The notes: a model not told the origin generated them from the letters alone. A DNA stretch of 61,443 bases, filler included, from 4 parts of 4 records of this genome joined end to end with filler, not necessarily neighbours in it; one strand, 5' to 3'; positions 24,178-56,231 are shown, counted from the first letter of the whole stretch. Numbers and translations are program-made.

Positions 24178-24277
24178 NNNNNNNNNNNNNNNNNNNNNNN
24201 NNNNNNNNNNNNNNNNNNNNNTTAATTAATTAANNNNNNNNNNNNNNNNNNNNNNNNNNNNNNNNNNNNNNNNNNNN
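24178..24277. other. Artificial contig spacer
   Basis: N-run, TTAATTAATTAA (stops in all six frames), N-run. Confidence 0.98.
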
Positions 24278-34915: not shown

Positions 34916-34983
34916 CCCCCGCGCTTTGGAGGACCTTCCTTACCTTGAGGAACGTTCCCTCGTCCGCCAATGGAGAGATTCCC

Positions 34984-36267: not shown

Positions 36268-36287
36268 GCACCTCGTTATCGCCTGAC

Positions 36288-36315
36288 AAAAAAGCCGCCT
36301 TCGGGCGGTTTTTTT
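36288..36315 (+). terminator. Intrinsic terminator after gltA
   Basis: AAAAAAGCCGCC-TTCG-GGCGGTTTTTTT. Confidence 0.92.
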
Positions 36316-36532
36316 GTGTCTCCAAAAAACCGCCGCGAATTAAGCGCTGCCAGTCACGAACCCCGAGACCTCTCATGGTTTCGACTTTCGCTGCTTGAAA
36401 CTCGCTGCTCGCTCACCCGGCACTCACCCGGCAACAACGGTTTCACTCTGCTGATTGGGCGTTATTACCACCCTGCATTTGCGTGGTTGCGCCGTGCATG
36501 CAAGCATCATCGTCTCGCTAGCCAACGCAGAC

Positions 36533-37645
36533 ATGACAATGAAAAAAATTCTCGCGCTTCTCATCATCATCGCCATTGCCGCCTACCTGTTATTCTGGCC
36601 GGTCAGCATCGAGCCCGTCGCCTGGCAGGCCCCCACAGCCCCTGCCCTTGAAGGCGCCTACGCCACCAACACGACACTCAGTGACAGCCGCATACTCGGC
36701 AAGGATGAAGGCGTTGGCCCGGAAGATGTGGCCATTGATGACGAAGGCTACCTGTACGTGGGCTATGTAGATGGCCGCATTGTTCGTTTTGATCCCGACG
36801 GCAAGAACCCGGATCTGATCGCCAACACCGAAGGCCGGCCACTGGGCCTGGATTTCGCGCCCTCCGGCAACCTGATCGTTGCCGATGGTTACAAGGGGCT
36901 TTTGAGCATCAACGCGGCCGGCGCCATCACAACCCTGAGCGACAGCGCTAACGGACTGGCCTACGGTTTCACCGATGACGTGGATGTGGACAGCAACGGC
37001 ATCGCCTATTTCTCCGATGCCTCCAGCAAATTTGGCCCGGCCATGCATGCCCGCGACGACATCATGGAGCACGGCGGCCACGGCCGGCTGTTGCGTTACG
37101 ACCCAGGCACCGGCCAAGCCGAAGTCCTGCTGGATGGCCTGCAGTTCGCCAATGGTATCGCCCTGTCGCAGAATGAAGACTTTGTGCTGGTCACCGAAAC
37201 GGGCAACTACCGCATCGTTCGCTACTGGCTCAAAGGCGACAAGGCCGGCAGCCACGATATCTTCATGGATAACCTGCCCGGCATCCCGGATGGTATCTCG
37301 GCCAACGGCGACGGTACTTTTTGGCTCGCCTTGTTCAGCCCCCGCAATGCCATGCTCGACAGCCTTTCCGACAAACCGCTGCTGCGCAAAGTCGCCTTTC
37401 GCATGCCCAGCTTTCTGCAGCCGCAACCGGTGCATCACGGCTTTGTGCTCGGCCTCGACGAGCAAGGACAGGTCACTCACAACCTGCAAGACAACAGCGA
37501 CAGCGCCTTCGCCCCGATCACCAGCGCCGAACAGCATGGCAACACCCTCTACCTGGGCAGCCTTACCGAACCGCGCTTTGCCGCTTACCCCCTGGGCGAT
37601 AACAGCTCCGCCACTGGCAGTAATGACGGAGCCAACGACAAATGA
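36533..37645 (+). CDS. SMP-30/strictosidine synthase-like beta-propeller protein
   Basis: N-terminal TM, GPEDV, GRPLGL, YFSDAS, FANGI and LPGIPDGI. Confidence 0.9.
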   Translation: MTMKKILALLIIIAIAAYLLFWPVSIEPVAWQAPTAPALEGAYATNTTLSDSRILGKDEGVGPEDVAIDDEGYLYVGYVDGRIVRFDPDGKNPDLIANTEGRPLGLDFAPSGNLIVADGYKGLLSINAAGAITTLSDSANGLAYGFTDDVDVDSNGIAYFSDASSKFGPAMHARDDIMEHGGHGRLLRYDPGTGQAEVLLDGLQFANGIALSQNEDFVLVTETGNYRIVRYWLKGDKAGSHDIFMDNLPGIPDGISANGDGTFWLALFSPRNAMLDSLSDKPLLRKVAFRMPSFLQPQPVHHGFVLGLDEQGQVTHNLQDNSDSAFAPITSAEQHGNTLYLGSLTEPRFAAYPLGDNSSATGSNDGANDK

Positions 37646-38526
37646 GCATTCTGAACGCCGCCTTTATCGGACTCGGCACCATGGGCTACCCCATGGCCGG
37701 CCACCTGGCCGAAGCGGGTATTACCATGACGGTGTACAACCGCACCGGTCAGCGGGCACAGCAGTGGATCAGGGACTACCCCGGCAGCCATGCCCCGACA
37801 CCCGCTGAAGCCGCTCAGGGGGCTGATCTGGTTTTTGTCTGTGTCGGTAACGACGATGACCTACGCCAGGTGACGCTCGGCGAAGACGGCGTCCTGCAAG
37901 GCCTTGCCAAGGACGCGATTCTGATCGATCACACCACCGCCAGCGCAGAAATGGCCCGTGAGCTGGATACCGCCTGTCGGAAGCAGGGCAATCATTTTGT
38001 GGATGCCCCGGTCTCCGGCGGGCAACAAGGAGCTGAAAACGGCCAACTGTCAATCATGTGCGGGGGTGAAGAAGCGATCTATCAGCGCGTACTGCCCACC
38101 CTTCAGCATTACGCCAAAGCCACCAACCTGATGGGGCCGGCAGGCAGTGGCCAGCTGACCAAGATGGTTAACCAGATCTGCGTGGCCGGCCTGGTGGAAG
38201 CGTTATCTGAAGGCGTCGCCTTTGCCCTGAACGCCGGCCTGGATGCCAGCAAAGTCTTCGACACCATCAGCCAGGGCGCCGCCGGTTCCTGGCAAATGGT
38301 GAACCGGCACCAAACCATGATCGACGACCAGTATGAGCACGGCTTCGCCGTGGACTGGATGCGCAAGGACCTGGATATCTGCCTGAACGAAGCCGCCCGG
38401 AACGGAACGCCACTGCCCATCACTGAGCAGATAAACGACTTTTACCGGGATATTCAGACCATGGGCGGGGGCCGCTGGGATACATCCTCGCTGTTACGCC
38501 GGCTGCAGAAAAAGCCTGAAGCCTGA
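37642..38526 (+). CDS. NAD(P)-dependent beta-hydroxyacid dehydrogenase family protein
   Basis: FIGLGTMG, DAPVSGGQ and GSGQLTKMVNQ; ATGA overlap with the upstream gene. Confidence 0.92.
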   Translation: MSILNAAFIGLGTMGYPMAGHLAEAGITMTVYNRTGQRAQQWIRDYPGSHAPTPAEAAQGADLVFVCVGNDDDLRQVTLGEDGVLQGLAKDAILIDHTTASAEMARELDTACRKQGNHFVDAPVSGGQQGAENGQLSIMCGGEEAIYQRVLPTLQHYAKATNLMGPAGSGQLTKMVNQICVAGLVEALSEGVAFALNAGLDASKVFDTISQGAAGSWQMVNRHQTMIDDQYEHGFAVDWMRKDLDICLNEAARNGTPLPITEQINDFYRDIQTMGGGRWDTSSLLRRLQKKPEA

Positions 38527-39880: not shown

Positions 39881-40288
39881 ATGGAACCGGCAACAGCCCA
39901 TACCCCACAAGCTCTGGACGATGGCGCCCGCCATGCGGCCTTGCGTGCTGTACTGAAACTGCTGGAGCACTGGCAATGCAGTGAAAAGGAGAAAATGGCA
40001 CTACTCGGTGTAGGCCGCTCCACCCTGCACAAATACCAGAGCCAGCCAGACAGCGCGCGGGTAAACCAGGATCTGCTGGAACGGCTCAGCTATCTGCTGA
40101 ATATCCACCAGGCGCTACGCACTCTGTTCGGCAACAAGGAGAACGTGTACGGCTTTGTGCGCATGGCCAACCATAACGCCTTTTTCAATGGCGCGACCCC
40201 CATGAGCATTATGGGCAACGGCCGGGTCGCCAGCCTCTATGAAGTACACCGCCAGCTCGACAGCCTGCGGGGCGGCCAATGGGGCTGA
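39881..40288 (+). CDS. Xre/MbcA/ParS antitoxin
   Basis: HTH-like N-terminus (LLGVGRSTLHKY), ERLSYLLNIHQAL, F.G.TP and LDSLRGG; overlaps the RES gene. Confidence 0.88.
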   Translation: MEPATAHTPQALDDGARHAALRAVLKLLEHWQCSEKEKMALLGVGRSTLHKYQSQPDSARVNQDLLERLSYLLNIHQALRTLFGNKENVYGFVRMANHNAFFNGATPMSIMGNGRVASLYEVHRQLDSLRGGQWG

Positions 40289-40986
40289 GTGAAGCGGATA
40301 CCAACGCCTTGCCACGCACCGCGCTACATGGGCAAACCGCCTATCGACTGGTCAATGGCAAATATCCCCCCATCGCCATCTTCGATGATGTGGCAGACCA
40401 GGCTGATTTCGATGCGCTGTTTGCCGTGCAGGCTCTCACCAATCCGCGCCTGCAGAACGATGTTGGCGAGTTAAACCGGGTACCGCCCGATCAACGCCCT
40501 TGGGGCATCCCCGGTTGCAACTATGCGCTGGGCCCTTTCGTGCATGTGAACCCGGCCGGCTCGCGCTTCTCTGCAGGCCATTACGGCGTCTTCTATTGTG
40601 CTGACCGCATGGCAACGGCCATTGCCGAAACCCGCTATCACCAGCAACGCTACTTCCAGCAGGTGGATGGCCTCAAATATGACCGCATCGTCATGCGCGG
40701 CCTGAAGGTCAATTTCACCGCGACACTCATCGATATCACTCCTGCCAGCGACCACCCACACTGGCATGCGCCCAATGATTACAGCGCAGCCCACCTGCTG
40801 GGCCAGCAACTAAGGGACCAACAGCACAGCGGCATTCATTACGAATCGGTGCGGGCTGCCGGCAGCCATTGCTACGCCCTGCTGACCCCTCAAATTATCG
40901 CCAGCATTACCCCCAGCGCTCACTACGAATACATCTGGGACGGCGAAAAAATCGCCCACACCCTGACCATTCGCCGATTAAACTGA
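40279..40986 (+). CDS. RES-domain toxin (NAD+ phosphorylase family)
   Basis: YRLV, GSRFS.G.YGVFY, TAIAET and GIHYESVR give the R-E-S signature. Confidence 0.9.
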   Translation: MGLSEADTNALPRTALHGQTAYRLVNGKYPPIAIFDDVADQADFDALFAVQALTNPRLQNDVGELNRVPPDQRPWGIPGCNYALGPFVHVNPAGSRFSAGHYGVFYCADRMATAIAETRYHQQRYFQQVDGLKYDRIVMRGLKVNFTATLIDITPASDHPHWHAPNDYSAAHLLGQQLRDQQHSGIHYESVRAAGSHCYALLTPQIIASITPSAHYEYIWDGEKIAHTLTIRRLN

Positions 40987-41178: not shown

Positions 41179-41208
41179 TGGCGTCCCCTAGGGGAGTCGA
41201 ACCCCTGT
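41179..41208 (-). tRNA. tRNA-Glu 3' fragment (T arm, acceptor strand, CCA)
   Basis: Reverse complement ACAGGGGTTCGACTCCCCTAGGGGACGCCA matches gammaproteobacterial tRNA-Glu 3' ends; the anticodon falls in the gap. Confidence 0.85.
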
Positions 41209-41308
41209 NNNNNNNNNNNNNNNNNNNNNNNNNNNNNNNNNNNNNNNNNNNNTTAATTAATTAANNNNNNNNNNNNNNNNNNNNNNNNNNNNNNNNNNNN
41301 NNNNNNNN
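41209..41308. other. Artificial contig spacer
   Basis: N-run, TTAATTAATTAA, N-run. Confidence 0.98.
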
Positions 41309-41957
41309 CGGCCCGAACGGGGCGGGCAAGACCACGCTGTTCGCCACCATCGCCGGTTTCCTGAAGCCGAGTGAGGGCAGCGTCCTGCTCGGCGGGCAGG
41401 ACATCACCGGGCGCAAGCCGCACGATATCTGCCGGCGCGGCATGGTCCGCACCTTCCAGGTGGTGAAGCCCTTCGCCGGGCTGAGCGTGCGGGAAAATAT
41501 CGCCGTCGGCGCGCATACACGGATCGCCGGACGGGCGGAAGCGCTGGCTTTTGCCGGGAAGATCGCAGAGCAAGTCGGCCTTGGCGCCATGCTGGACCAG
41601 TCGGCGGGGGATCTCACCGTTGCCGGGCGCAAGCGGATCGAGCTTGCCCGGGCACTGGCGACGCAGCCGAAGCTGCTGCTGCTGGACGAGGTGATGGCCG
41701 GGCTCAACGCGACGGAGATTCTTGAGATCGTCGCGATCATCCAGCAGATCCGGGACAGCGGAGTCACCATTCTTCTGATCGAACATGTCATGCAGGCGGT
41801 AATGAAACTGTCCGACCGGGCCTATGTGCTGAATTACGGTGAGATCATTGCTGAGGGCAGCCCGGTCGAGATCGCGCACGATCCGAAAGTGGTCGAGGCC
41901 TATCTCGGGCACGGGGCGAGCGAGCGGATGAAATCCGCGGGAGGCACCGATGCTTGA
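41309..41957 (+). CDS. Branched-chain amino acid-type ABC ATPase (LivG-like), 5'-truncated
   Basis: GPNGAGKTT from 41310, RTFQ, LLLLDE, IEH and V.EAYLG. Confidence 0.92.
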
Positions 41958-42651
41958 GGTCAAGGATCTGAAGGCCGGATACGGTCAGGCAAAGGTGCTG
42001 CACGGTGTCTCGCTGAAAATCGGCGAGGGCGAGCTGGTGGCGCTGCTCGGCAGCAACGGCGCGGGTAAATCGACGCTGAACAACAATGTCTCCGGCATTT
42101 ACAAGCCGTTCGCGGGTAGTATCCGGTTTGACGGGATTGAGATTGCCGGTGCCCGTTCGGAAGAGATTGTCGATCGCGGCCTGATCCAGGTGCCGGAAGG
42201 CCGCCGGGTGTTTCCGAACATGTCCGTGCGGGAAAATCTCGAGCTTGGCTCCTACAGGCGTGCCACGCCGAACCGGGCCCGGAACATCGACCGTGTGGTC
42301 GGGATCTTCCCGCGCCTGAAAGAACGGTTTGACCAATATGCGGGCACGCTGTCCGGTGGCGAGCAGCAGATGCTGGCCATCGGCCGCGGCCTGATGGCTG
42401 AGCCGCGCCTGCTGATCCTCGATGAGCCGTCACTGGGCCTGTCACCGCTTCTGGTGGAGGAGATGTTCGCGCTGATCCAGAAATTGCGCGCCGAAGGGCT
42501 GGCGATTTTCCTGGTCGAACAAAACGTCGTCCAGTCGCTGGAGATCGCAGACCGGGCTTATGTCATGGAGAACGGTCTGATTACGGTTGAGGGACCGGCG
42601 CAGGATCTGATGCATGACGAGGAGCTGCGCCGCTCCTATTTGGGGATGTAG
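41950..42651 (+). CDS. Branched-chain amino acid-type ABC ATPase (LivF-like)
   Basis: GSNGAGKST, VPEGRRVF, LSGGEQQM, LDEPSLGL and VEQN. Confidence 0.95.
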   Translation: MLEVKDLKAGYGQAKVLHGVSLKIGEGELVALLGSNGAGKSTLNNNVSGIYKPFAGSIRFDGIEIAGARSEEIVDRGLIQVPEGRRVFPNMSVRENLELGSYRRATPNRARNIDRVVGIFPRLKERFDQYAGTLSGGEQQMLAIGRGLMAEPRLLILDEPSLGLSPLLVEEMFALIQKLRAEGLAIFLVEQNVVQSLEIADRAYVMENGLITVEGPAQDLMHDEELRRSYLGM

Positions 42652-42653
42652 TC

Positions 42654-43931
42654 ATGAGCATGACACTGGCGGAAAAGATCATCGCGAAGGCGGCCGGACA
42701 GGACAGCGTCCGGGCTGGTGAAATCGTCACCTGCAACGTCGATCTCGCCATGATCCATGACAGCGGTGGGCCGCGCCGGGTGAAACCGGTGCTGGAGCGC
42801 CTCGGCGTGAAGGTCTGGGACGCGAAGAAAGTGGTCGTGATCTCCGACCATTTTGTCCCGGCGGTGGACCAGCAGAGCGCCGCGATCCTGAAACTGACCC
42901 GGGACTGGGTGAAGGATCAGGAGATCGAGGGATTCTATGACCAGCAGGGTATCTGCCATGTGGTTCTGCCGGAACGCGGGCATCTGAAACCCGGCATGTT
43001 CGTGGTCGGCGGTGACAGCCACTCGCCGACCGGCGGTGCCTTTGGTTGCTACATGTTTGGCGTCGGTGCGACGGATATGGCGGGCGTGCTGGTCACAGGG
43101 GAGACCTGGATCAGGGTGCCGGAGACCATCCGGATCGACTGGTCCGGCACGCTGCCGCACGGCTCGTCGGCCAAGGACATGATGCTGAAGCTCTGCGCCA
43201 CGCTGGGCATGGATGGCGGCGATTATCAGGCGGTGGAATATACCGGCAGCACGATTGCGGGCCTGTCCATGACGGAACGCATGACCATGTCCAACATGGC
43301 GGCTGAACTCGGCGCGCAAGCGGGGCTGATCGCGGCGGACGGAACGACGGCGGACTATATCCGTGCGGCGGGAGCCGATCCGAATGAGGGTACAGCCTTC
43401 GCAGGGGACGCGGATGCGGCCTACCGCGTGGTCCATGAGTTCGATGCTTCCACGCTCGGCCCTCAGGTTGCCGCACCGGATAGCCCGGCCAATTCCGGCC
43501 CGGTCGAGGATGCCGAGGATGCACCGGTCGACCAGTGCTATATCGGCGCCTGCACCGGCGCGAAGCTGGAAGACCTGCATATGGCGGCGGAAGTGCTCGG
43601 CGGTCGTCAGGTCGCGCGCGGGACGCGCCTGCTGCTGGCTCCTGCCTCGACGCGGGTCACGGCCGCTGCTGCCGCAGATGGCACGCTGGCGAAACTGACG
43701 GAAGCGGGCGCCATCCTGATGCCGTCCGGTTGTGGTGCCTGTGCCGGGTATGGCGCTGGTGTGCTGGCCGAAGGTGAGACCTGCATGGCCTCGACCGCGC
43801 GGAACTTCAAAGGCCGGATGGGCGCGCGTTCCTCGAAAGTCTATCTCGGCTCGCCCTATACCGTTGCCGCGACCGCCGTGCGCGGCCGTGTTGCCGATCC
43901 GCGCCCTTTCCTGGCGGAGAACAGGTCATGA
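42654..43931 (+). CDS. LeuC/DmdA/HacA-type [4Fe-4S] hydratase, large subunit
   Basis: DH, GICH, GDSHS, IGACTG, GCGAC and RNFKGRMG; short 425-aa form. Confidence 0.92.
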   Translation: MSMTLAEKIIAKAAGQDSVRAGEIVTCNVDLAMIHDSGGPRRVKPVLERLGVKVWDAKKVVVISDHFVPAVDQQSAAILKLTRDWVKDQEIEGFYDQQGICHVVLPERGHLKPGMFVVGGDSHSPTGGAFGCYMFGVGATDMAGVLVTGETWIRVPETIRIDWSGTLPHGSSAKDMMLKLCATLGMDGGDYQAVEYTGSTIAGLSMTERMTMSNMAAELGAQAGLIAADGTTADYIRAAGADPNEGTAFAGDADAAYRVVHEFDASTLGPQVAAPDSPANSGPVEDAEDAPVDQCYIGACTGAKLEDLHMAAEVLGGRQVARGTRLLLAPASTRVTAAAAADGTLAKLTEAGAILMPSGCGACAGYGAGVLAEGETCMASTARNFKGRMGARSSKVYLGSPYTVAATAVRGRVADPRPFLAENRS

Positions 43932-44416
43932 GCGGTAAAGCATGGAAATACGGCGACAATGTCGATACCGACCTGCTCGCCCCTGGCGCCTATATGAAAG
44001 GCCCGGTGGAAGAACTGGCGAAACATTGCCTTGAAGCCATCGATCTTGAGTTTGCACCGAACGTGCAGCCGGGCGACGTCATCGTCGCGGGCCGCAATTT
44101 CGGTATCGGCTCCAGCCGAGAGCAGGCGGCGGAAGTGCTGGTTCTGCTCGGCGTGAAGGCGGTTATCGCCAAGAGCTTCGGCGGGATCTTCTACCGTAAC
44201 GCCTTCAATCTCGGCCTGCTGGCGCTGGTCGCCGACGCCGAGGCGGATATCGAGGCGGGGCACGAGCTTGACCTCGATCCGGCCAGCGGCACCATCACCA
44301 ATACGACAACCGGCGCGCAGATCGCCGCCGAACCCGTTCCCGAGCATCTCCGCCGCATTGTCGCGGCCGGCGGGCTCGTTCCCTATCTCGAGCAGAAACT
44401 GGAGAAACACTCATGA
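43928..44416 (+). CDS. LeuD/DmdB-type hydratase, small subunit
   Basis: GDNVDTD, NFGIGSSREQA and SFGGIFYRN. Confidence 0.92.
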   Translation: MSGKAWKYGDNVDTDLLAPGAYMKGPVEELAKHCLEAIDLEFAPNVQPGDVIVAGRNFGIGSSREQAAEVLVLLGVKAVIAKSFGGIFYRNAFNLGLLALVADAEADIEAGHELDLDPASGTITNTTTGAQIAAEPVPEHLRRIVAAGGLVPYLEQKLEKHS

Positions 44417-45291
44417 CGCCTTCAAGCGTCCTGAAACAGCGGCTGAAACAGCCCGAGATCCTTGTGGCGCCCGGCGTGTTCGACGCCTTCAGCGCCATGG
44501 CGGCGACCAATGCGGGCTTCGAGGCGCTTTATGTCTCCGGTGCGTCCATTGCCTATACCCGTCTCGGCCGCCCCGATATCGGCCTGTTCGGGCTTGAGGA
44601 AGTGGCTGACGTGGTCTCGCATATCTCCGAGCGGGTCGACCTGCCACTGATTGTCGATGCCGATACCGGTTTCGGCAATGCGCTGAACGTCCAGCGTACC
44701 GTCCGCCTGCTGGAGCGCTCCGGCGCCGCCGGGATCCAGATTGAAGATCAGGCGATGCCGAAGCGCTGCGGCCATCTGGACGGCAAGGCGCTGGTCTCCA
44801 AGTCGGAAATGGCGGGCAAGATCCGCGCGGCCGTCGATGCCCGGCGGGACGAGGCGACCCAGATCATCGCCCGCACCGACGCCATCGGCGTTGAGGGCTT
44901 CGAGGCAGCGCTGGAACGCGCCCAGGCTTACAAGGAAGCCGGTGCCGACGTGCTGTTCGTCGAGGCGCCGCGCGACGAGGCGGAGATCGCCGAAGTGATC
45001 TCCCGGTTCGGGGCGGACATTCCGCTGCTCGCCAATATGGTCGAGGGGGGTAAGACGCCCGCCAAGTCCGCCGAGGAATTGCAGGAAGCCGGGTTCGATA
45101 TCGTGATTTTCCCGGGCGGCCTGATGCGTGCGCTCGCGGTGACGATCACCGAGTATTTCCAGAGCCTGCACGCAAACGGCAGCACCAAGCCGTTCCAGGA
45201 CCGGATGCTGGACTTCAAGCAGTTGAACGATCTGCTGGGCACGCCGGGCATTCTTGAGGCTGGCCGGAAATATGACGGGGAGGCCGAATGA
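44413..45291 (+). CDS. Isocitrate lyase/PEP mutase family lyase (PrpB or 2,3-dimethylmalate lyase type)
   Basis: DADTGFG, IEDQ..PKRCGH, IARTDA and NMVEGGKTP. Confidence 0.92.
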   Translation: MTPSSVLKQRLKQPEILVAPGVFDAFSAMAATNAGFEALYVSGASIAYTRLGRPDIGLFGLEEVADVVSHISERVDLPLIVDADTGFGNALNVQRTVRLLERSGAAGIQIEDQAMPKRCGHLDGKALVSKSEMAGKIRAAVDARRDEATQIIARTDAIGVEGFEAALERAQAYKEAGADVLFVEAPRDEAEIAEVISRFGADIPLLANMVEGGKTPAKSAEELQEAGFDIVIFPGGLMRALAVTITEYFQSLHANGSTKPFQDRMLDFKQLNDLLGTPGILEAGRKYDGEAE

Positions 45292-47027
45292 TGGCGGCGC
45301 TTGATCCGGTCACCCTCGCGGTTCTGAAAGGGCGGCTCGAACAGATCGCGGACGAGATGGACGCGACCCTGTTCCGCAGCGCCTTCAACCCGATCATCGC
45401 CGAGGCGCACGACGCCTCGCACGGGCTCTATCATGCCGAGACCGGCGAGACGCTGGTGCAGGGCAAGTCCGGCCTGCCGATCTTCGTCGGCGCCATGTCC
45501 TTCGCGGTGAAGGCCGTGATCGACAAGTTCGGCGCCACGGGCGGGATCAGCGAAGGTGATGTCTTCATCTTCAACGATCCCTATGAAGGCGGCACCCACC
45601 TGTCCGACTTCAAGCTGGTGCAGCCCTTCTACCGGGACGGCAAGCTGTTCTGCTTCCTAGCCTCGGTCGGCCATTGGCACGATGTTGGCGGCAATGTGCC
45701 GGGGAACTACAACCCGGTCGCGACCGAGAGCTTCCAGGAAGGCATGATGATCCCGCCGGTGAAGCTGTTCTCCAAGGGAGAGCTGCGGCAGGACGTGATC
45801 GATATCATGCAGGCCAATTCCCGCCTGCCGGGCAGTCTCTATGGCGATCTGAACGGCCAGATCAACGCGCTGCGTCTCGGTAACGACCGGCTCGGCGCGC
45901 TCCTTGGTGAATATGGCGCGGACACTGTCGCGGGCGCCATGACCGAGCTGCGGGATCGGGCCGGGCAGCTCATGCGCAGCCTGATCGCAGACATGCCGGA
46001 CGGCCGCTATTCGGCGGACGATTTCCTCGACAATGATGGCATCGTCGACGAGCCGCTGCGCATCGCGCTCGATATCGTCATCGAGGGTGAGACCATGACA
46101 CTCGATTTCTCCCGGACCTCACCTGCCTGTGCCGGCCCGGTGAACATCTCCCGCTCGACCGCGATTGCCTCCTGCTACGTGGCGCTGAAGCATGTCTTCA
46201 AGGACGTGCCGGCCAATGCGGGTGTGCTGGAGCCGATCACCTTCGTCATTCCGGATGACAGCCTGCTGAGCGTCAAGGCGCCCAAGCCCGTCGGCGGTTA
46301 CACCGAGACCATTTTGCGCATCATCGACACCGTGTTCGTTGCCCTCAGCGACGCGGCGCCGGAGATGGTGAACGGCTGCGCCTACGGCACCATCAACGCG
46401 CTATCGCTGGCCGGGCACCGCAAGAACGGCCAGCGCTGGGTGATGTTCTCCTTCTTCGGTGGCGGCCATGGCGGCAATCCGGAAGGCGACGGGCTGAACC
46501 ACGGCAACGCGCCGATCTCGACGGCGACCATCCCGCCGATGGAAATCCTGGAAGCTGCCTATCCGGTCCGCTTCACCCAATGGGCGTTGCGGCCTGATAG
46601 CGGCGGCGCCGGGCGGCATCGCGGCGGCCTCGGGGCGATCTACGAGATCGAGCTGCTGGAAGAGAAGGCGGATGTCTTCCTCTTTGGTGAGCGCGGCCGG
46701 TTCGCGCCGCATGGTGTGGTCGGTGGCGGCGACGCCGCTCTGAACACATTCACCTACGAGCAGGTGGATGGCACTCACACACCGCCAATGGCCTCGAAGA
46801 TGGTCGGCATCAAGCTGGCGCAGGGCCAGAAGGTCCGACTGGAGACGCCGGGCGGCGGCGGCTACGGCGACGTGCTGGAACGCGCGCCTGACGCTGTCGC
46901 GGAGGATGTCCGGCTCGGCTATGTCAGCGCCGATGCGGCTGCCAAGACCTATCGCACAATTATCGCCGCCGACGGATCCGTCGACACAGCGGCTACCGAA
47001 ATCCTGCGCGCGGAGTCTGCGCAATGA
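45288..47027 (+). CDS. Hydantoinase B/oxoprolinase subunit
   Basis: RSAFNPII.E, NDPYEGGTHLSD, GHWHDVGG, DSGGAG and TPGGGGYG. Confidence 0.94.
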   Translation: MMAALDPVTLAVLKGRLEQIADEMDATLFRSAFNPIIAEAHDASHGLYHAETGETLVQGKSGLPIFVGAMSFAVKAVIDKFGATGGISEGDVFIFNDPYEGGTHLSDFKLVQPFYRDGKLFCFLASVGHWHDVGGNVPGNYNPVATESFQEGMMIPPVKLFSKGELRQDVIDIMQANSRLPGSLYGDLNGQINALRLGNDRLGALLGEYGADTVAGAMTELRDRAGQLMRSLIADMPDGRYSADDFLDNDGIVDEPLRIALDIVIEGETMTLDFSRTSPACAGPVNISRSTAIASCYVALKHVFKDVPANAGVLEPITFVIPDDSLLSVKAPKPVGGYTETILRIIDTVFVALSDAAPEMVNGCAYGTINALSLAGHRKNGQRWVMFSFFGGGHGGNPEGDGLNHGNAPISTATIPPMEILEAAYPVRFTQWALRPDSGGAGRHRGGLGAIYEIELLEEKADVFLFGERGRFAPHGVVGGGDAALNTFTYEQVDGTHTPPMASKMVGIKLAQGQKVRLETPGGGGYGDVLERAPDAVAEDVRLGYVSADAAAKTYRTIIAADGSVDTAATEILRAESAQ

Positions 47028-49093
47028 ATGATCTGAGCCGGAAGACCGTCGTCGGAGTCGATGTCGGCGGCACGTTTACCGATCTGTTTTTCCTCGACGA
47101 AGCAGCCGGAACCTGCGGCGTTGCCAAGGTCCCCTCGACCAAGCCGGACCAGTCGGTCGGCATACGCGGCGGCATCGGCGAGGGCGGTGTGGAGCTTGGC
47201 GCCATCGGCACCATCGTGCATGGCACCACGGTCGGCACCAACGCGCTGCTGGAACGCAATGGCGCCCGCACCGGTGTCATCACCACGACCGGTTTCCGTG
47301 ACGTGCTGGAAATGCGCCGCCGCGACCGGCCGCAGACCTGGGGCCTCTGGGGCAGTTTCGACCCGGTGGTGCCGCGCGACCTGCGCCTTGAGGTGGATGA
47401 ACGGGTGCTGGCCGACGGCTCCGTGCATACCGCCGTCGATCCGGACGCCGTGAAGCAGGCCGCCAAGACATTGCTCGAACGCGGCGCCGAATCCGTCTGC
47501 GTCTTCTTCGTCAATTCCTACGCCAACGACGCGAACGAGAAGGTGGCGCTTGAGGCCGTCCGCGAGGTCTGGCCGAACCCGCATATCACGGCTTCCAGCG
47601 TGATCCTGCCGGAAATCCGTGAATTCGAACGCGGTTCGACCGCCTCTCTCAACGCCTATCTTCAGCCTCCGGTGGGCAACTACCTCGAGCGTCTGGAAGA
47701 CGGTCTGCGCGATGGCGGTTTCGGCGGCCAGGTGCTGATCGTGCAATCGAACGGCGGCGTCATGTCGGCCAAGGTGGCGCGGGAGCTGCCTGTGCGCACG
47801 GCGCTCTCCGGCCCGGCTGCAGGCGTCATCGCCGGGGCCTATATCGCGGAAGCCGCAGGCGAGCCGAACATCATCACCTGCGACATGGGCGGTACCAGCT
47901 TCGATGTCTCCCTCGTCGCGGACGGGCAGAGCGCACTGAGCGCCCAGACCTCCATCGATTTCGGCATGGTGGTCCGCACCCCGATGATCGAGATCACCAC
48001 CATCGGCGCAGGCGGTGGCTCCATTGCCTCCGTCGACCGTGGCGGGCTGCTGCAGGTAGGCCCGGAAAGCGCGGGCTCCGACCCGGGCCCGGTTTGCTAT
48101 GGGCTCGGCAACACGCGTCCGACCGTGACCGATGCGAACGTGGTCATGGGCCGGATCAATGCAGAGCGCCCGATCGGCGGCAAGCTGGACCGGCTCGACG
48201 TGGAGGCATCGAAAGAGGCCATTCGCGTGCATGTGGCGGAGCCGCTTGGTATCGAGGTGATGGAGGCGGCGGAAGCCATCGTCCGGGTCGCCAATGCCAA
48301 GATGGCGGGCGCCATCCGTCTTGTTTCCATCGAGCGCGGGCACGACCCGAAGACCTTCACCGCCATGCCGTTCGGCGGTGGCGGCTCGCTGCATACCGGT
48401 GCGCTGATCAAGGAAGTCGGCCTCGCCCGTGCGCTCGTCCCCCGCTATCCGGGTGTGACCAGTGCGCTCGGCTGCGTCATCGCCGACATGCGGCATGACC
48501 GGGTGCAGACCCTGAACACCATGCTGGACATGCTCGATCTCTCGGCCCTGAACAAGGCGGTCGAGGAAATCGTGATCGAGGCTGAAGGCCTGCTGGACGG
48601 TGCCAACGTCGCCTTCGAGGGCATCGAGCGTCTGGTTGAGTTCGACATGCTCTATCTTGGCCAGACCCATACGGTTTCCGTGCCGGTTGCTGACGCGATG
48701 AATGGCAGCCGGTCGGTACTCGATACGGTGAAGATCAAGGCGGCGTTCGAGGCGGCTTACAAGGCCACCTTCGGCAGCCTGCTGGACGGAATCGGCATCC
48801 GGGTGATGAACCTGCGGGTCGCCGTGATCGGCACGCGCCCGAAATTCGATCTGGCACTGCTGGCACCGTCCGAAGGCGGATCGGTCGAGGCCTCGCGCAC
48901 CGGTGCGCGGCAGATCTGGTTCGACAGCAAATGGTGGGACAGCCCGGTCTATGATCGTCTGTCATTGCCGGTCGGTGCGGAAGTGCCGGGTCCGGCGGTG
49001 CTGGAGCAGGCGGACACCACCATCCTGGTCGATCCGGACCTCACGGGCACGGTCGACAGCTACGGCAATTTCGTCATTGCGAGGAAAGCCTGA
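47024..49093 (+). CDS. Hydantoinase A/oxoprolinase ATP-binding subunit
   Basis: DVGGTFTD, HGTT.GTNALL, SGPAAG, DMGGTSFD, GPESAG and PTVTDA. Confidence 0.95.
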   Translation: MNDLSRKTVVGVDVGGTFTDLFFLDEAAGTCGVAKVPSTKPDQSVGIRGGIGEGGVELGAIGTIVHGTTVGTNALLERNGARTGVITTTGFRDVLEMRRRDRPQTWGLWGSFDPVVPRDLRLEVDERVLADGSVHTAVDPDAVKQAAKTLLERGAESVCVFFVNSYANDANEKVALEAVREVWPNPHITASSVILPEIREFERGSTASLNAYLQPPVGNYLERLEDGLRDGGFGGQVLIVQSNGGVMSAKVARELPVRTALSGPAAGVIAGAYIAEAAGEPNIITCDMGGTSFDVSLVADGQSALSAQTSIDFGMVVRTPMIEITTIGAGGGSIASVDRGGLLQVGPESAGSDPGPVCYGLGNTRPTVTDANVVMGRINAERPIGGKLDRLDVEASKEAIRVHVAEPLGIEVMEAAEAIVRVANAKMAGAIRLVSIERGHDPKTFTAMPFGGGGSLHTGALIKEVGLARALVPRYPGVTSALGCVIADMRHDRVQTLNTMLDMLDLSALNKAVEEIVIEAEGLLDGANVAFEGIERLVEFDMLYLGQTHTVSVPVADAMNGSRSVLDTVKIKAAFEAAYKATFGSLLDGIGIRVMNLRVAVIGTRPKFDLALLAPSEGGSVEASRTGARQIWFDSKWWDSPVYDRLSLPVGAEVPGPAVLEQADTTILVDPDLTGTVDSYGNFVIARKA

Positions 49094-49701
49094 TGAGCGG
49101 GGAATTCGATCCGAAGACGACGGCGCTGCTGCTGGTCGACATGCAGAATGACTTTTTGCACCCGGCAGGGGCCTATGCGCGTGGCGGTGCCGGGGCGGCG
49201 GAGATCGCGGCCCTGCCGGAGGCGCTGAAGCCGGTGGCGGACAGAATGCGGGAGATCGGCGGCTGGATCGTCTCCACCCATTTCACGCTGGTTCCCGGCA
49301 AGGAGGGTGAGCCCTTCATCTCGCCGCACCTGAAGCAGCTCCGTCCGTTCCTGCGCAAGGGCGATTTCGAGCCTGGCCGTTTCGGTCAGGACCTGATCGA
49401 GGGGCTGGCGCCCGCCGATATCAAGGTCGAGAAGGTGGCTTTCTCAGCTTTCTACATGAGCCGTCTCGAATGGGTGCTGAACCGGGCGGGGATCGAGCAT
49501 CTGATTGTCGGCGGCATTGTTACCAATGGCGGCGTTGCCTCGACCGTGCGCGATGCCCATGTCCGGGATTTCCATGTCACCGTGCTTTCCGACGGTTGCG
49601 CGGCCTTCTCTCCGGAAGTGCACGAAACCAACATCGCCGCTCTGAAGAGTGTTGCCGGGATTGATGATTGCGCCAGCGTGATCGAGAGGCTGAAGCCATG
49701 A
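49093..49701 (+). CDS. Isochorismatase-family hydrolase lacking the catalytic Cys
   Basis: LLVDMQNDF, EK.AFSAF and GIVTNGGVASTVRDA. Confidence 0.88.
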   Translation: MSGEFDPKTTALLLVDMQNDFLHPAGAYARGGAGAAEIAALPEALKPVADRMREIGGWIVSTHFTLVPGKEGEPFISPHLKQLRPFLRKGDFEPGRFGQDLIEGLAPADIKVEKVAFSAFYMSRLEWVLNRAGIEHLIVGGIVTNGGVASTVRDAHVRDFHVTVLSDGCAAFSPEVHETNIAALKSVAGIDDCASVIERLKP

Positions 49702-51083
49702 TCGGCGTTGCATCTCCGGAAGATATCGAGTTTCCCGCCTGGGTCCAGACCATCGTCATTGGTGCCGGGGCCTGCGGGTTGACGGCGGCGCTGGCGGCGC
49801 TGGCGGCGCAGGATGCGGGCGGTGAGGTGCTTGTGCTGGAGCGGGACGAGAGCCCGTTTGGCTCCACCTCCATGTCCTCGGGCTTTATTCCGGCAGCGGC
49901 AACGCGCTGGCAGCAGGAACAGGGGATCGACGACGATCCCAGCCTGTTTCTGGAAGACATTCAGCGCAAGTCCCACGACCGCTCCGATCCGACGGTAGCG
50001 GCTGAAGTGACCGAGGCCATCGGCCCGGCGCTGGAATGGCTGGAGGACGAGCACGGCATTCCGTTCGAGGTGCTGGACGGTTTTCTCTATCCCGGACACA
50101 GCCGGCACCGGATGCATGCCGTGCCTGAGCGCACCGGCGAAGCCCTGCTGACCCGGCTTTTGCAGGCGGTGATGGCGGCGGGTATCCCGGTGATGACCGA
50201 TGCCAGGGTGACGACACTGTTCGCCGATGAAGACGGCCTGATCTCCGGTGTCGAGGTAACCCGGCCCGATGGCACGACGGAGCTGATCGGCTGCGACAGC
50301 CTGATCCTGGCCTGCAATGGTTATGGCGGTAACCCGGAGATGGTGTCGGCGAACATCCCCGCCATGGCCGAGGCGGAATATCACGGCCATGCTGGCAATA
50401 CCGGTGACGCGGTGCTCTGGGGGGAGGCGCTCGGCGCCGAGGTGCGCGATCTGACGGCCTGTCAGGGCCACGGCTCCCTCGCCATGCCGCACCGTATCCT
50501 GATCACCTGGGCGCTGATGATGGAAGGCGGCATCCAGGTCAACAAGAACGGCGACCGGTTCGCCAACGAGCATCAGGGATATAGCGAACAGGCCGTCGAC
50601 GTGCTGAAGCAGCCGGACGGCGTGGCCTTCGATATCTATGACGCCCGGCTGCACGCGCTCGGGCTGGAATTTCCCGACTACAAGGACGCGGTCAATGCCG
50701 GTGCGGTCAGGCAATGCGACAGCGTCGAGGAACTGGCCGAGCATATCGGCGTGCCGTTTGACAATCTGGACGCTGCCATTGCCGCAACCCACACGGATGA
50801 GGTTGACCGGTTTGGCCGTGATCTTGGCAAGACGCCAGGTTTGGAAGATCCGTTCTTTGCTGTCCGCGTCACCGGCGCGCTGTTCCACACCCAGGGCGGC
50901 CTCGCCATCGATGGTGAGGCACGCGTGCTGCGGGACGATGGCAGTCCGTTCCCGAACCTGTTCGCCGCTGGCGGTGCCGCCGTCGGTGTCTCCGGTCCGG
51001 ACATTTCGGGCTATCTCTCCGGCAACGGCCTGCTGACCGCAATTGCGCTTGGCCGGATCGCCGGAGAGGCCGCCGTCAGGTAA
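49698..51083 (+). CDS. FAD-dependent oxidoreductase (fumarate reductase/KstD/TcuA-like)
   Basis: GAGACG, GSTSMSSG, NTGD, RFANE, HTQGG and GYLSGNGL; ATGA overlap places the start at 49698. Confidence 0.88.
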   Translation: MIGVASPEDIEFPAWVQTIVIGAGACGLTAALAALAAQDAGGEVLVLERDESPFGSTSMSSGFIPAAATRWQQEQGIDDDPSLFLEDIQRKSHDRSDPTVAAEVTEAIGPALEWLEDEHGIPFEVLDGFLYPGHSRHRMHAVPERTGEALLTRLLQAVMAAGIPVMTDARVTTLFADEDGLISGVEVTRPDGTTELIGCDSLILACNGYGGNPEMVSANIPAMAEAEYHGHAGNTGDAVLWGEALGAEVRDLTACQGHGSLAMPHRILITWALMMEGGIQVNKNGDRFANEHQGYSEQAVDVLKQPDGVAFDIYDARLHALGLEFPDYKDAVNAGAVRQCDSVEELAEHIGVPFDNLDAAIAATHTDEVDRFGRDLGKTPGLEDPFFAVRVTGALFHTQGGLAIDGEARVLRDDGSPFPNLFAAGGAAVGVSGPDISGYLSGNGLLTAIALGRIAGEAAVR

Positions 51084-51305: not shown

Positions 51306-52487
51306 ATGACAAACGATCCCGATATTGAGGCCGATGGCTCCGGCCGTTCGCTCCCTGAAGTGCCGTCCGATCGCTGGGCGCTGTTGCGCTGGTTCGTATC
51401 GTCCGCGACCATGAATTTTCCGCAGGCAGCCTCCCCGGTCGCGTTTTCGCTGCTTGCTCTGAGCCTTACCGGAGACTCCGGTCAGGGTGCCGCGCTGATC
51501 CTCGCCATGACGCTGGCCCAGGTGCTTGGCGCGATCCCGATCACGCGTCTGGGCAGGAACTTCCAAGCAGCAAGGTTCCTGCAAATCTTGATCGTGATCC
51601 GCACGCTGGCTCTGGTGTTGATGGCCGCACTGGCGGCGCATGGTGTTGCCTTTGTCTGGTTGTTCGTGTTCGCGGCAGTTGCAGGATCGGTGAATGGCGC
51701 GGCTTTCGGATATCTGCGCTCGATCCTGAACAGTCTGACATCGACGACAAGACTGCCCCGGGCACTGGGCATCTCGGCGACACTCAACGAGGTCACGTTC
51801 GTTCTTGCGCCGGTGGCCGCGTCGGGGCTCGGGACGGTCTCACCGATCTTCGCCATCCTGGCGCTGGCACTTCTTGGCGCCGTCCCTGTCTTTCTCGTCC
51901 CGCATATCCAGTCGGTTCACGGTGAGAAGGTGCGGGCGGCCAAGACCTCGGTGCTCACCCCGGCGATTGCCTTGTGGCTTATGTGCGGGGCGGCCGGCGG
52001 CGCCACCGTCGCCGCCATAGAGATCGGCGCTGTCGCCCTCGCCCTGGAGTTCGGGTACGAGCCCGCGCTCGCCATCCTGTTCACGGTCCCGTTGTGCCTG
52101 TCTTCCGTTACAGGAGGCATCCTGGTCAGCATTTACAATCGCACGCTCTCCCGCCGGACGGTGGTGCTTCTGCTGGCGCTCATGGCTGCCGGGGCCACAC
52201 TTGCCGCGTTCCAGCTGTCTCTCACGGCAACCATTATCGGCGCCGTCCTGATCGGCTGCGTTCTCGCGCCTCTGGGGACATACTACTCCCTTATCCTCGA
52301 TACGCTTGTTACGCCGGATAAACGCCCGGAAGTGTTCGCCCTGTTGCGTACATCGAACGCGGTCGGGGTGATCTTCGCGAGCGGAGTGCTGACCGCTTTC
52401 TCAATACCGGTGGCACTGGGCGTTGTCGCGACTCTGATGTTTATCGTCACGTTGGTGGTCGCGGCTGCGTCATTCCGGGAGGTTTGA
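51306..52487 (+). CDS. MFS transporter
   Basis: 393 aa, about 11-12 hydrophobic segments in two halves, E.TFVLAP motif. Confidence 0.82.
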   Translation: MTNDPDIEADGSGRSLPEVPSDRWALLRWFVSSATMNFPQAASPVAFSLLALSLTGDSGQGAALILAMTLAQVLGAIPITRLGRNFQAARFLQILIVIRTLALVLMAALAAHGVAFVWLFVFAAVAGSVNGAAFGYLRSILNSLTSTTRLPRALGISATLNEVTFVLAPVAASGLGTVSPIFAILALALLGAVPVFLVPHIQSVHGEKVRAAKTSVLTPAIALWLMCGAAGGATVAAIEIGAVALALEFGYEPALAILFTVPLCLSSVTGGILVSIYNRTLSRRTVVLLLALMAAGATLAAFQLSLTATIIGAVLIGCVLAPLGTYYSLILDTLVTPDKRPEVFALLRTSNAVGVIFASGVLTAFSIPVALGVVATLMFIVTLVVAAASFREV

Positions 52488-52542: not shown

Positions 52543-53817
52543 TTATGCGCCAAGCGCGCGCAGGCAGAGGGAGGCGTTTACCCCGCCGAAGCCGAAGCTG
52601 TTGCAGAGCGCACTGCGGAGTGTCTTCGCCCGCGCTTTCAGCGGGATGAAATCCAGATCTTCCGCGCCATCGTCGGCACTGCCGAAATTCAGCGTCGGCG
52701 GCAGAACCCCGCGCAGCACGGCGAGGGTGGAGAAGACTGCTTCCACACCGCCTGCGGCGCCGAGCAGGTGCCCGATGGAGGATTTCGTCGAGGAGATCGG
52801 TATCCCGGCAAGCGCCGCGCCGAACACCCGGCGAAGTGCGGCGATCTCGCCCCGGTCGCCGACCGATGTGGATGTCGCGTGACCGTTGATATAGCCGATT
52901 GCGTCCGGACTCTCCGACGCCCGCTTCAGGCAGGCGTCGATGGCAAGTGCCGCGCCCGAGCCGTCTTCCGGGCCCGCCGTCAGGTGGTAGGCATCCGCGC
53001 TGGTGCCGTAGCCCGCGACCTCGACCAGCGGTGTGGCGCCGCGCGCCTCGGCATGGCTTTTTCGCTCAAGCACGACCAGTCCCGCGCCTTCACCCAGCAC
53101 GAACCCGTCCCGGTCCCTGTCATAGGGCCGTGAGGCCTGTTCCGGCGCTTCGTTCCGGGTGGAGAGGGCACGGGCTGCCGCGAAGCCGCCGATGGTCAGC
53201 CGGTCGATGCAGGCTTCCGTGCCGCCCGCGAGAACCACATCGGCCTCGCCCGCACGGATCAGCCGCATGCCGTCGCCGATGGCCTGGAGCCCGGCGGCGC
53301 AGGCGGTGACCGGCGTGTCGATCGGTCCCCGGAAGCCGTAGCGGATGGAAATATTTCCGGCGGCGAGGTTTCCGAGAAACGCGGGGATGACGAAGGGGGA
53401 GAGGCGGCGGTAGCCGCGCTGGTCGAGGGTGGTCTTGGCTTCCGTGATCACCGGGAAGCCGCCGATGCCGGTGGCGACGGCGGTTGCCGTGCGGTCGCGG
53501 CTTTCCTGATCCTCCGGCTTCCATCCGGCCTGGCTCAAAGCCTCTTCGGCCGCCGCCAGCGCGTAGATGGTGAAGAGATCGACCTTCTTGCGGTCCTTCG
53601 TCGAGATCACGGCGTCGATATCGAGGCCCGCTTCCGGGTCTTCCTCAATGGACGGGACCAGCCCGGCAATGCGGGTCGGCAGGTCGGAGACATCAATCCG
53701 GTCAATCGCACGGATGCCGGAACGGCCTGAGAGGAGCCTGTTCCACACCGCATCGACACCCCGTCCAAGAGGCGTCACGAGACCCATGCCGGTTATCACA
53801 ATCGGATCGTCAGACAT
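52543..53817 (-). CDS. fabF: Beta-ketoacyl-ACP synthase II, stand-alone paralogue
   Basis: VTACAAG, NGHATST, KSSIGHLLGAAG and NSFGFGG. Confidence 0.93.
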   Translation of the reverse strand: MSDDPIVITGMGLVTPLGRGVDAVWNRLLSGRSGIRAIDRIDVSDLPTRIAGLVPSIEEDPEAGLDIDAVISTKDRKKVDLFTIYALAAAEEALSQAGWKPEDQESRDRTATAVATGIGGFPVITEAKTTLDQRGYRRLSPFVIPAFLGNLAAGNISIRYGFRGPIDTPVTACAAGLQAIGDGMRLIRAGEADVVLAGGTEACIDRLTIGGFAAARALSTRNEAPEQASRPYDRDRDGFVLGEGAGLVVLERKSHAEARGATPLVEVAGYGTSADAYHLTAGPEDGSGAALAIDACLKRASESPDAIGYINGHATSTSVGDRGEIAALRRVFGAALAGIPISSTKSSIGHLLGAAGGVEAVFSTLAVLRGVLPPTLNFGSADDGAEDLDFIPLKARAKTLRSALCNSFGFGGVNASLCLRALGA

Positions 53818-56131: not shown

Positions 56132-56231
56132 NNNNNNNNNNNNNNNNNNNNNNNNNNNNNNNNNNNNNNNNNNNNTTAATTAATTAANNNNNNNNNNNNN
56201 NNNNNNNNNNNNNNNNNNNNNNNNNNNNNNN
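56132..56231. other. Artificial contig spacer
   Basis: N-run, TTAATTAATTAA, N-run. Confidence 0.98.

Follow-up and report, generated by a model that had tools for sequence, protein, structure and literature searches.

Among the described systems closest to the locus reported here is the nicotinate fermentation of Eubacterium barkeri, whose last steps are catalyzed by DmdAB (2,3-dimethylmaleate hydratase) and Dml (2,3-dimethylmalate lyase). Cyclic imides are degraded in Blastobacter sp. A17p-4 by an imidase and half-amidase route, and creatinine pathway II uses an ATP-dependent N-methylhydantoinase (HyuAB) together with N-carbamoylsarcosine amidase, a protein of the isochorismatase fold. Here we describe a gene cluster at positions 41309 to 51083, plus strand, of a 61,443-nucleotide stretch of DNA (the window, meaning the whole stretch that was analyzed). 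The cluster is a truncated copy of a real, widespread, and uncharacterized operon that represents a new combination of known enzyme kinds. Its genes, the spacer that precedes them, and the gene that follows are listed below.

41209..41308, no strand: assembly spacer N44-TTAATTAATTAA-N44, which joins two unrelated contigs and sets the apparent 5' end of the operon
41310..41957, +: livG-type ATP-binding cassette (ABC) ATPase, 5'-truncated (Pfam ABC_tran and BCA_ABC_TP_C; NCBIfam LivG)
41950..42651, +: livF-type ABC ATPase (Pfam ABC_tran; NCBIfam LivF at 246 bits, under the equivalog cut-off)
42654..43931, +: large subunit of a LeuC/HacA-type [4Fe-4S] hydro-lyase (Pfam Aconitase; NCBIfam hacA_fam)
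43928..44416, +: small subunit of LeuD/DmdB/HacB type (Pfam Aconitase_C; NCBIfam TIGR02087)
44413..45291, +: C-C lyase of the phosphoenolpyruvate (PEP)-mutase/isocitrate-lyase family with a PKRCGH motif (Pfam PEP_mutase; N-M-V-E-G-G and F268 conserved)
45288..47027, +: HyuB, hydantoinase B/oxoprolinase (Pfam Hydantoinase_B, E 2.5e-168)
47024..49093, +: HyuA (Pfam Hydant_A_N, Hydantoinase_A, and Hydant_A_C)
49093..49701, +: isochorismatase-fold protein with TNGGV at the nucleophile-Cys position (Pfam Isochorismatase; three PDB alignments)
49698..51083, +: soluble FAD_binding_2 flavoprotein of the fumarate-reductase/urocanate-reductase/KstD superfamily (Pfam)
51306..52487, +: major facilitator superfamily (MFS) transporter, a doubtful operon member (Pfam MFS_1)

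The initial annotation had read nine plus-strand genes in this order, with overlapping junctions and without leuA or leuB, as a complete uptake and degradation route. Order and strand are borne out by the open reading frames and by Pfam/NCBIfam matches, and the overlaps can be read from the sequence as ATGA at 43928, 44413, 45288, 47024, and 49698 and TGATG at 49091-49095. The livG and livF genes overlap by 8 nucleotides (nt), and 2 nt separate livF from leuC. Neither leuA nor leuB was found among the open reading frames and Pfam/NCBIfam matches of the operon contig (41309-56131), whose remaining genes are the MFS gene, fabF, hisS, and a partial purA. The idea of one coupled catabolic operon, its genes co-occurring across genera, also held up; that of a complete nine-gene route did not, as the window holds a truncated part of a 13-gene operon.

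The window itself is four contigs artificially joined, with N44-TTAATTAATTAA-N44 spacers at 24178-24277, 41209-41308, and 56132-56231 of its sequence, and genes on either side of a spacer are not real neighbors. The 5' limit of the cluster at 41309 is such a join and no biological start. Because 41309 is the first base past the spacer, livG is cut (about 37 N-terminal residues are absent, the match beginning at position 38 of the NCBIfam LivG profile), and the window has no regulator, binding protein, or permease genes for the operon. Recovering the upstream binding protein and regulator, as had been proposed, is impossible from the window, where another contig lies upstream. Window DNA 5' of the operon was accordingly rejected as the source of the missing genes; positions 34945-38526 match, over 3575 nt and at 99%, a genome that belongs to another genus (G001). 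The full arrangement can be seen in Nisaea denitrificans DSM 18348 (L012), where a GntR/UTRA regulator (HutC-type) is followed by a Peripla_BP_6 binding protein, livH, livM, livG, livF, and seven enzyme genes in the order leuCD-like, lyase, hyuBA, isochorismatase-like, and flavoprotein, with an MFS gene and then hisS on their 3' side. The livG of the window is 85-98% identical to Nisaea livG. The window carries the last nine genes of the 13-gene operon, truncated by the contig end.

To see how far the arrangement extends, a LeuC-like query was searched against one genome per species, which gave 106 stretches encoding relatives, of which 79 loci were kept and compared by tblastn with 14 query proteins. 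Loci with at least 8.4 kb downstream of leuC were considered judgeable (n=57). The seven-gene core was complete, in the same order and on the same strand, in 40 of these 57, which is far beyond chance; the others had a partial core (two loci, L046 and L050), PuuE-like genes (eight loci), or leuCD-lyase with other neighbors (seven loci). Another 22 of the 79 loci were too short to judge, and 21 of them are a consistent prefix of the core order. The gene-neighborhood survey that the initial annotation had proposed thus supports co-occurrence, and the objection that the genes might not co-occur across genomes fails. Carriers include Nisaea, Hwanghaeella, Denitrobaculum, Pelagibius, Marinibaculum, Tagaea, Mesorhizobium, Aliihoeflea, Sphingorhabdus, and Brevundimonas, as well as metagenome-assembled genomes (MAGs) of SAR116/Puniceispirillales, of Rhodobacteraceae, and from lakes. 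The operon is widespread in water and soil Alphaproteobacteria.

The pathway that follows is inferred from the families of the proteins, their conserved residues, and the context of the genes. The operon rather probably degrades a small nitrogen-containing ring that bears a free carboxylate, and a substituted five-membered cyclic imide would be the most likely such ring. The substrate would be taken up by the ABC importer, or by a tripartite ATP-independent periplasmic (TRAP) importer in other genera. The flavoprotein would then desaturate or otherwise adjust the ring or its side chain, as would a tautomerase in many genomes, after which HyuBA would open the ring with ATP, a step that two PuuE-type hydrolases would perform in other lineages. 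Nitrogen would leave as ammonia, helped by the isochorismatase-fold protein. The product would be a cis-substituted maleate with a third carboxylate, to be hydrated by the Fe-S LeuCD/HacAB-like enzyme, and the PrpB-like lyase would split the resulting 2-methyl-malate-type compound into pyruvate and a dicarboxylate, for which glutarate is our favored guess.

The free carboxylate is suggested first by transport. A LIV-type ABC importer is adjacent in 21 of the 40 full-core loci, and TRAP DctPQM genes stand in its place in nine. TRAP binding proteins characteristically clamp a carboxylate, and their use in these nine loci therefore makes it probable that the imported ring carries one. For neither the TRAP nor the ABC binding proteins was a PDB relative close enough for a ligand to be named.

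The hydratase points the same way. Its large subunit has Cys300, Cys360, and Cys363 invariant in 76 of 76 sequences, exceeds the cut-off of TIGR01343 hacA_fam (472.6 bits against 385.7), and finds 4kp1/4nqy and 4kp2 as its best PDB matches. The small subunit exceeds that of TIGR02087 'LeuD/DmdB family' (165.7 bits against 108.95) and is best matched in the PDB by the homoaconitase small subunit of Methanocaldococcus, 2pkp. The homoaconitase equivalog models were missed (HacA_Meth, 423 bits against 550; HacB2_Meth, 162.7 against 230). The small-subunit loop that we take to set substrate choice reads YMKG here, versus YLRT in 2pkp and YLVY in isopropylmalate/citramalate isomerase; one position of the loop, Arg in homoaconitase and Val in isopropylmalate isomerase, is Lys in 63 and Arg in 3 of 72 sequences. 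Passing the subfamily model and having a basic residue in this loop, the enzyme belongs with the HacAB family, and the conserved Lys suggests a negatively charged (carboxylated) substituent on the substrate. The plain dialkyl-maleate hydratase that had been envisaged gives way to one that looks homoaconitase-like.

The lyase belongs to the isocitrate lyase/PEP-mutase superfamily, with PKRCGH in 69 of 69 sequences and the Mg-site motifs DxDTGFG, EDQ, and RTD conserved. It is not recognizable as the 2-methylisocitrate lyase PrpB: it scores 313 bits with the prpB model TIGR02317 (equivalog cut-off, 354.4), and in a PDB alignment the N-I-T-E-F-G of Escherichia coli PrpB corresponds to an invariant N-M-V-E-G-G, which replaces T212 by Val, while the R270 position is Phe in 66 of 69 lyases. 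R241 is retained, and so are the residues (F, I, and P) that align with the PrpB methyl pocket. In PrpB, T212 and R270 are among the residues that bind the distal carboxylate. On these residues we read the lyase as one that would form pyruvate, with a pocket for the 3-substituent that is larger than or different from that of PrpB. The Rhodospirillum rubrum 'dimethylmalate lyase' was considered as a precedent and set aside, being an ordinary PrpB of a prp operon (PMC8471276).

HyuA and HyuB are encoded side by side with full-length Pfam domain architecture and belong to the ATP-dependent hydantoinase/oxoprolinase family. The best PDB matches of HyuA are 7hk5, labeled 'N-methylhydantoinase' (E 9.5e-127), and 6yra, and the best NCBIfam matches of the pair are the caprolactamase models CapA (533.7 bits) and CapB (334.6 bits); as both scores lie under the cut-off of 1000, the pair was not assigned to CapAB. 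By these matches HyuA appears nearest to ring openers of the N-methylhydantoinase/caprolactamase type and not to carboxylases.

The ring-opening step that the initial annotation had proposed is strengthened by the variant loci. In L035, L039, L040, L087, L088, and L089, hyuB-hyuA is replaced by two tandem PuuE-like genes directly 3' of the lyase, each of about 305 codons and of the polysaccharide-deacetylase fold. Their best PDB matches are PuuE allantoinase 3cl6 (E 3e-32) and 3s6o, and they score 137 and 119 bits with the NCBIfam PuuE model, far under its cut-off of 424.6. A PuuE-fold gene is absent from the window, the tandem pair occurring in variant loci only. The protein of 3S6O shares 91% identity with the characterized cyclic imidase BpIH (PMC11424739), and the fungal cyclic imidase HxnM falls into the same fold family (PMC9304392). 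That two unrelated ring openers fill one slot argues most strongly for the opening of a hydantoin- or imide-type ring. Amide hydrolases also recur beside leuCD-lyase in the variants, as Cys-containing isochorismatase-family genes and amidase-signature genes. One variant, L035, has lyase and isochorismatase domains in a single 474-residue frame (3125-4549, +), which is either a natural fusion or a sequencing error of the MAG; if natural, it would tie both steps together.

Further genes accompany the core in part of the 79 loci: a tautomerase-SnoaL fusion in 27, a short-chain dehydrogenase/reductase (SDR) gene in 15, an S-adenosylmethionine (SAM) methyltransferase gene in 13, an Asp/Glu/hydantoin-racemase-family gene in 11 (SAR116/Puniceispirillales-type MAGs included), a PrpD-family gene in 6, and an aldehyde dehydrogenase gene in 6, these being variants that lack the flavoprotein. 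NCBIfam gave no match for the racemase-family gene. The fusion protein joins 4-oxalocrotonate tautomerase to SnoaL_2 in about 188 residues (e.g., L016, 3777-4343, -), is often accompanied by a SAM methyltransferase of 369 residues and a small protein without a family assignment, and is absent from the Nisaea loci. A conserved frame of about 475 residues lies directly upstream of gntR in L020-L025 (Denitrobaculum/Kiloniellaceae/Pelagibius; e.g., L025, 7419-8846, +); it had no Pfam or NCBIfam match and may be an unrecognized transporter or a shadow frame.

The isochorismatase-fold protein departs from the amidases of its family. Asp16 and Lys114 are kept in 49 of 49 sequences, and the nucleophile-Cys position is Gly in three independent PDB alignments and in 44 of 49 homologues. 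To our knowledge, every characterized amidase of this fold uses a Cys nucleophile; with an Asp-Lys-Cys triad that has lost its Cys, the protein was not assigned to the Cys amidases (CSHase, NicF, PncA, RutB, or BiuH). In PuuE-type and SDR/SnoaL-type variants the isochorismatase-family genes still encode the Cys, and thus its loss goes with HyuBA. Lacking Cys, the protein would have to assist ammonia release by acid/base chemistry and not through a thioester. One possible role is acid-catalyzed loss of ammonia from a dialkyl-maleamate, helped by a neighboring carboxylate; hydrolysis of an enamine or vinyl-ether type of bond and a non-catalytic role are also possible. The Asp/Lys-retaining, Cys-to-Gly site resembles the active site of vinyl-ether hydrolases of the PhzD/EntB type.

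The flavoprotein likewise differs from the fumarate reductases. It aligns over its full length with flavocytochrome c3 (Fcc3) fumarate reductases and urocanate reductase and keeps both active-site His residues, but it has Met at R402 and Tyr at R545 (Fcc3 numbering) in 43-44 of 44 orthologues, the two positions that we take to be the catalytic and binding arginines. Scores are under the cut-offs for both flavo_cyto_c TIGR01813 (236.6 bits; 285.45) and TcuA (145.2 bits; 369), and identification as a fumarate reductase/flavocytochrome c or as TcuA was rejected. The protein is accordingly no succinate/fumarate-type enzyme, and since it lacks the two carboxylate-binding arginines it probably acts on neutral ring carbonyls, as KstD-type desaturases do.

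Several observations weigh against an imide substrate degraded to pyruvate and a dicarboxylate. The known substrates of ATP-dependent HyuAB enzymes are lactams and hydantoins, whereas imides are hydrolyzed without ATP; HyuBA therefore speaks for a lactam or a hydantoin. A maleimide-type substrate needs no redox step, which makes the role given to the flavoprotein ad hoc, and the Cys-less isochorismatase-fold protein leaves deamidation without a proven catalyst. The loop Lys of the hydratase is replaced by Gly in four Mesorhizobium/Aliihoeflea-type loci, and the Val and Phe at the T212 and R270 positions of the lyase could just as well point to a substituent that is hydrophobic, which would contradict a tricarboxylate. 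Finally, no recurrent glutarate-catabolic genes were found near the cluster; a CoA-transferase (L087) and a thiolase (L081) each occur in a single locus.

Within the imide reading, one specific source of the substrate deserves mention, although we regard it as an outside candidate. Each pyrrole ring of heme, bilins, and chlorophyll carries a methyl and a second substituent, and oxidative breakdown of these pigments yields maleimides and hematinic acid, a maleimide with methyl and carboxyethyl groups. The operon might conceivably be a bacterial route that mineralizes carboxylated monopyrroles from heme, bilin, or chlorophyll oxidation, namely, hematinic acid and its relatives. Hematinic acid would suit the carboxylate importers as well as the hydratase loop of homoaconitase type and the methyl pocket that the lyase shares with PrpB. 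In such a route the flavoprotein and the tautomerase/racemase-type genes would convert saturated or isomeric ring forms, such as the dihydro imide of chlorophyll ring D, to the maleimide; HyuBA or the PuuE pair would open the ring and ammonia would be released; methyl-cis-homoaconitate would be hydrated by the homoaconitase-like enzyme; and the PrpB-like lyase would yield pyruvate and glutarate. The reduced ring-D imide of chlorophyll would give the flavoprotein a job. Our literature search found nothing on the dihydro-imide chemistry of chlorophyll ring D and no catabolic genes for bacterial degradation of hematinic acid. The compound itself is documented after chlorophyll and heme oxidation, in leaves, and in lake sediments (PMC7318184).

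An unsaturated lactam, such as a pyrrolinone- or pyridone-type carboxylate, is an unlikely substrate. HyuBA and ATP would turn it into an enamine, which the Cys-less protein would hydrolyze as isochorismatase does its vinyl ether, and the carbonyl product would be oxidized and passed to the hydratase and lyase. Dependence on ATP is typical of lactam openers (5-oxoprolinase and caprolactamase), and the prominence of caprolactamase among the NCBIfam matches, with 6yra as a top PDB match, agrees with this. So do the likeness of the Asp/Lys-retaining, Cys-to-Gly site to vinyl-ether hydrolases of the PhzD/EntB type, the aldehyde dehydrogenase genes of the six variant loci without the flavoprotein, and the tautomerase-SnoaL fusion. 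The variants speak otherwise, however: PuuE-type replacements of HyuBA are known for hydantoins and imides and not for simple lactams, and the loci with the PuuE pair carry a normal Cys amidase, which fits a route from imide to half-amide. Nor does any specific lactam give a substituted maleate in an obvious way.

We think it quite unlikely that the substrate is a 5-substituted hydantoin broken down along the lines of the creatinine/N-methylhydantoin pathway. Either HyuBA or PuuE would then form an N-carbamoyl amino acid, from which the isochorismatase-fold protein would remove the carbamoyl group; the flavoprotein would oxidize the amino acid in the manner of aspartate oxidase, and the skeleton would enter the hydratase and lyase. 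The N-methylhydantoinase label on the best PDB match of HyuA accords with this, as does the fact that PuuE opens the hydantoin ring of allantoin. N-carbamoylsarcosine amidase belongs to the isochorismatase family (a 3eef-related match), L-aspartate oxidase belongs to FAD_binding_2 (a nadB match), and the racemase-family gene of 11 loci would have a place. Yet that gene lacks an NCBIfam match, the carbamoylase-type Cys is missing here and in 44 of 49 homologues, and the core contains no aminotransferase or ammonia-lyase. Moreover, an amino acid would give a 2-oxo acid and not the cis-enoate or 2-hydroxy acid used by LeuCD-type enzymes. That the modules are unrelated and merely adjacent, a methylcitrate-like hydratase and lyase beside a creatinine- or oxoproline-type ring opener with no common substrate, is very improbable: each has stand-alone precedents and leuCD-lyase occurs without hyuBA in 15 of the 57 judgeable loci, but 4-nt start/stop overlaps span every module boundary, 40 of 57 loci, spread over many genera, share the gene order under a single GntR, and loci without hyuBA usually have a different ring hydrolase or amidase in that place beside leuCD-lyase.

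The carboxylated imide remains our preferred substrate, and its identity matters beyond this locus. Abundant heterotrophs of marine and fresh waters (SAR116/Puniceispirillales, Nisaea, Pelagibius, Rhodobacteraceae MAGs, and lake MAGs) carry the operon, as do soil genera (Mesorhizobium, Tagaea, and Brevundimonas), and such carriers with a dedicated high-affinity importer suggest that a common nitrogen-containing organic acid is consumed by a route absent from pathway databases. A known substrate would give functions to seven protein subfamilies whose present names, taken from homology, are wrong (isopropylmalate dehydratase, methylisocitrate lyase, oxoprolinase, isochorismatase, and fumarate reductase), and it could fill a gap in how dissolved organic nitrogen from pigments or other heterocycles is turned over. 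Hallmark catalytic residues have been lost from two enzymes that are nonetheless strictly conserved, which holds promise of new chemistry in known folds.

The contig that carries the operon appears to differ in origin from its neighbors in the window. Its GC content is about 0.64, versus about 0.58 for the neighboring contig, and its fabF and hisS have only 70-74% matches, of less than 220 nt each, in the genus of G001. The operon proteins are 85-99% identical to those of the nearest Nisaea loci (L011-L014) and 77-94% identical to those of two more distant Nisaea MAGs (L015 and L083). No copy of the operon was found in 41 relatives of the assembly's main organism, in which the lyase query gave only PrpB-like matches of 39-46% identity. 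By these comparisons the contig looks Nisaea-like, lying within the assembly of another genus and coming from a different organism than the neighboring contigs; it is probably a contaminant, a co-culture partner, or a mis-binned sequence.

Of the genes around the operon, the MFS gene follows the flavoprotein after 222 nt, a gap in which we found no promoter and no convincing terminator, and it lies 3' of the operon only in Nisaea loci L012-L015 (74-87% identical). Between it and hisS is a gene for a fabF-type beta-ketoacyl-acyl carrier protein synthase (52543-53817, -); N. denitrificans L012 has no gene there. The neighboring contig carries a RES-Xre toxin-antitoxin pair at 39881-40986 (+), in which an antitoxin with an Xre-like helix-turn-helix and Xre_MbcA_ParS_C precedes the RES-domain toxin; although 5' of the operon in the window, the pair is unrelated context. 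At about 41180-41208 the sequence resembles the end of a minus-strand tRNA gene cut by the contig end, and ARAGORN found no complete tRNA at that end. A strictosidine-synthase-like/SGL (SMP-30/gluconolactonase-type) gene at 36455-37645 (+) of the same contig adjoins a 3-hydroxyisobutyrate-dehydrogenase-like gene and citrate synthase.

Literature searches, with supplementary tables outside their scope, found no published description of the operon, and the initial view that a LeuCD-type hydratase with a KRCGH lyase is joined here to functions of no published pathway stands. As DmdAB and Dml are described, the likeness lies in a two-subunit LeuCD-type Fe-S hydratase followed by a KRCGH lyase of the PEP-mutase/isocitrate-lyase family, with pyruvate formed, and the operon hydratase is indeed a two-subunit LeuCD-type [4Fe-4S] hydro-lyase. 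Unlike DmdAB, it resembles homoaconitase in having a basic loop residue, here Lys, a sign that the substituent is a carboxylated one and no methyl group, and unlike E. barkeri, the hosts are aerobic Alphaproteobacteria. None of the other nicotinate-fermentation genes (the Mo hydroxylase set, enamidase, mutase, and methylitaconate isomerase) was found in the flanks scanned with Pfam, which were those of L012, L016, L025, L027, L039, L043, L044, L052, L055, and variants, a part of the 79 loci. The end of the 2-methylcitrate cycle (AcnB/AcnD, then PrpB) offers a similar succession of aconitase-family hydration and PrpB-type cleavage to pyruvate, and the flavoprotein shares a superfamily with TcuA (tricarballylate dehydrogenase) and Frd. 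The operon differs from both in that the PrpB and TcuA models score under their cut-offs, T212 and R270 are changed, and a TcuB partner is lacking.

The route proposed here resembles cyclic-imide catabolism in passing from imide to half-amide to dicarboxylate, as in A17p-4 and for BpIH/AfIH (PMC11424739) and HxnM/HxnN of Aspergillus nidulans (PMC9304392). The variant loci share PuuE-fold proteins and a Cys amidase with these systems; the window, in contrast, uses ATP-dependent HyuBA, and its 'amidase' lacks the Cys. Known cyclic-imide routes also end with succinate- or 2-hydroxyglutarate-type products and include no hydratase, lyase, or flavoprotein of their own. Creatinine pathway II has the same two protein families side by side, and the best PDB match of HyuA is an N-methylhydantoinase. 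Unlike that pathway, however, the operon lacks the amidase Cys and has no creatinine deaminase or sarcosine oxidase genes, and its pair is coupled to the genes of a hydratase, a lyase, and a flavoprotein.

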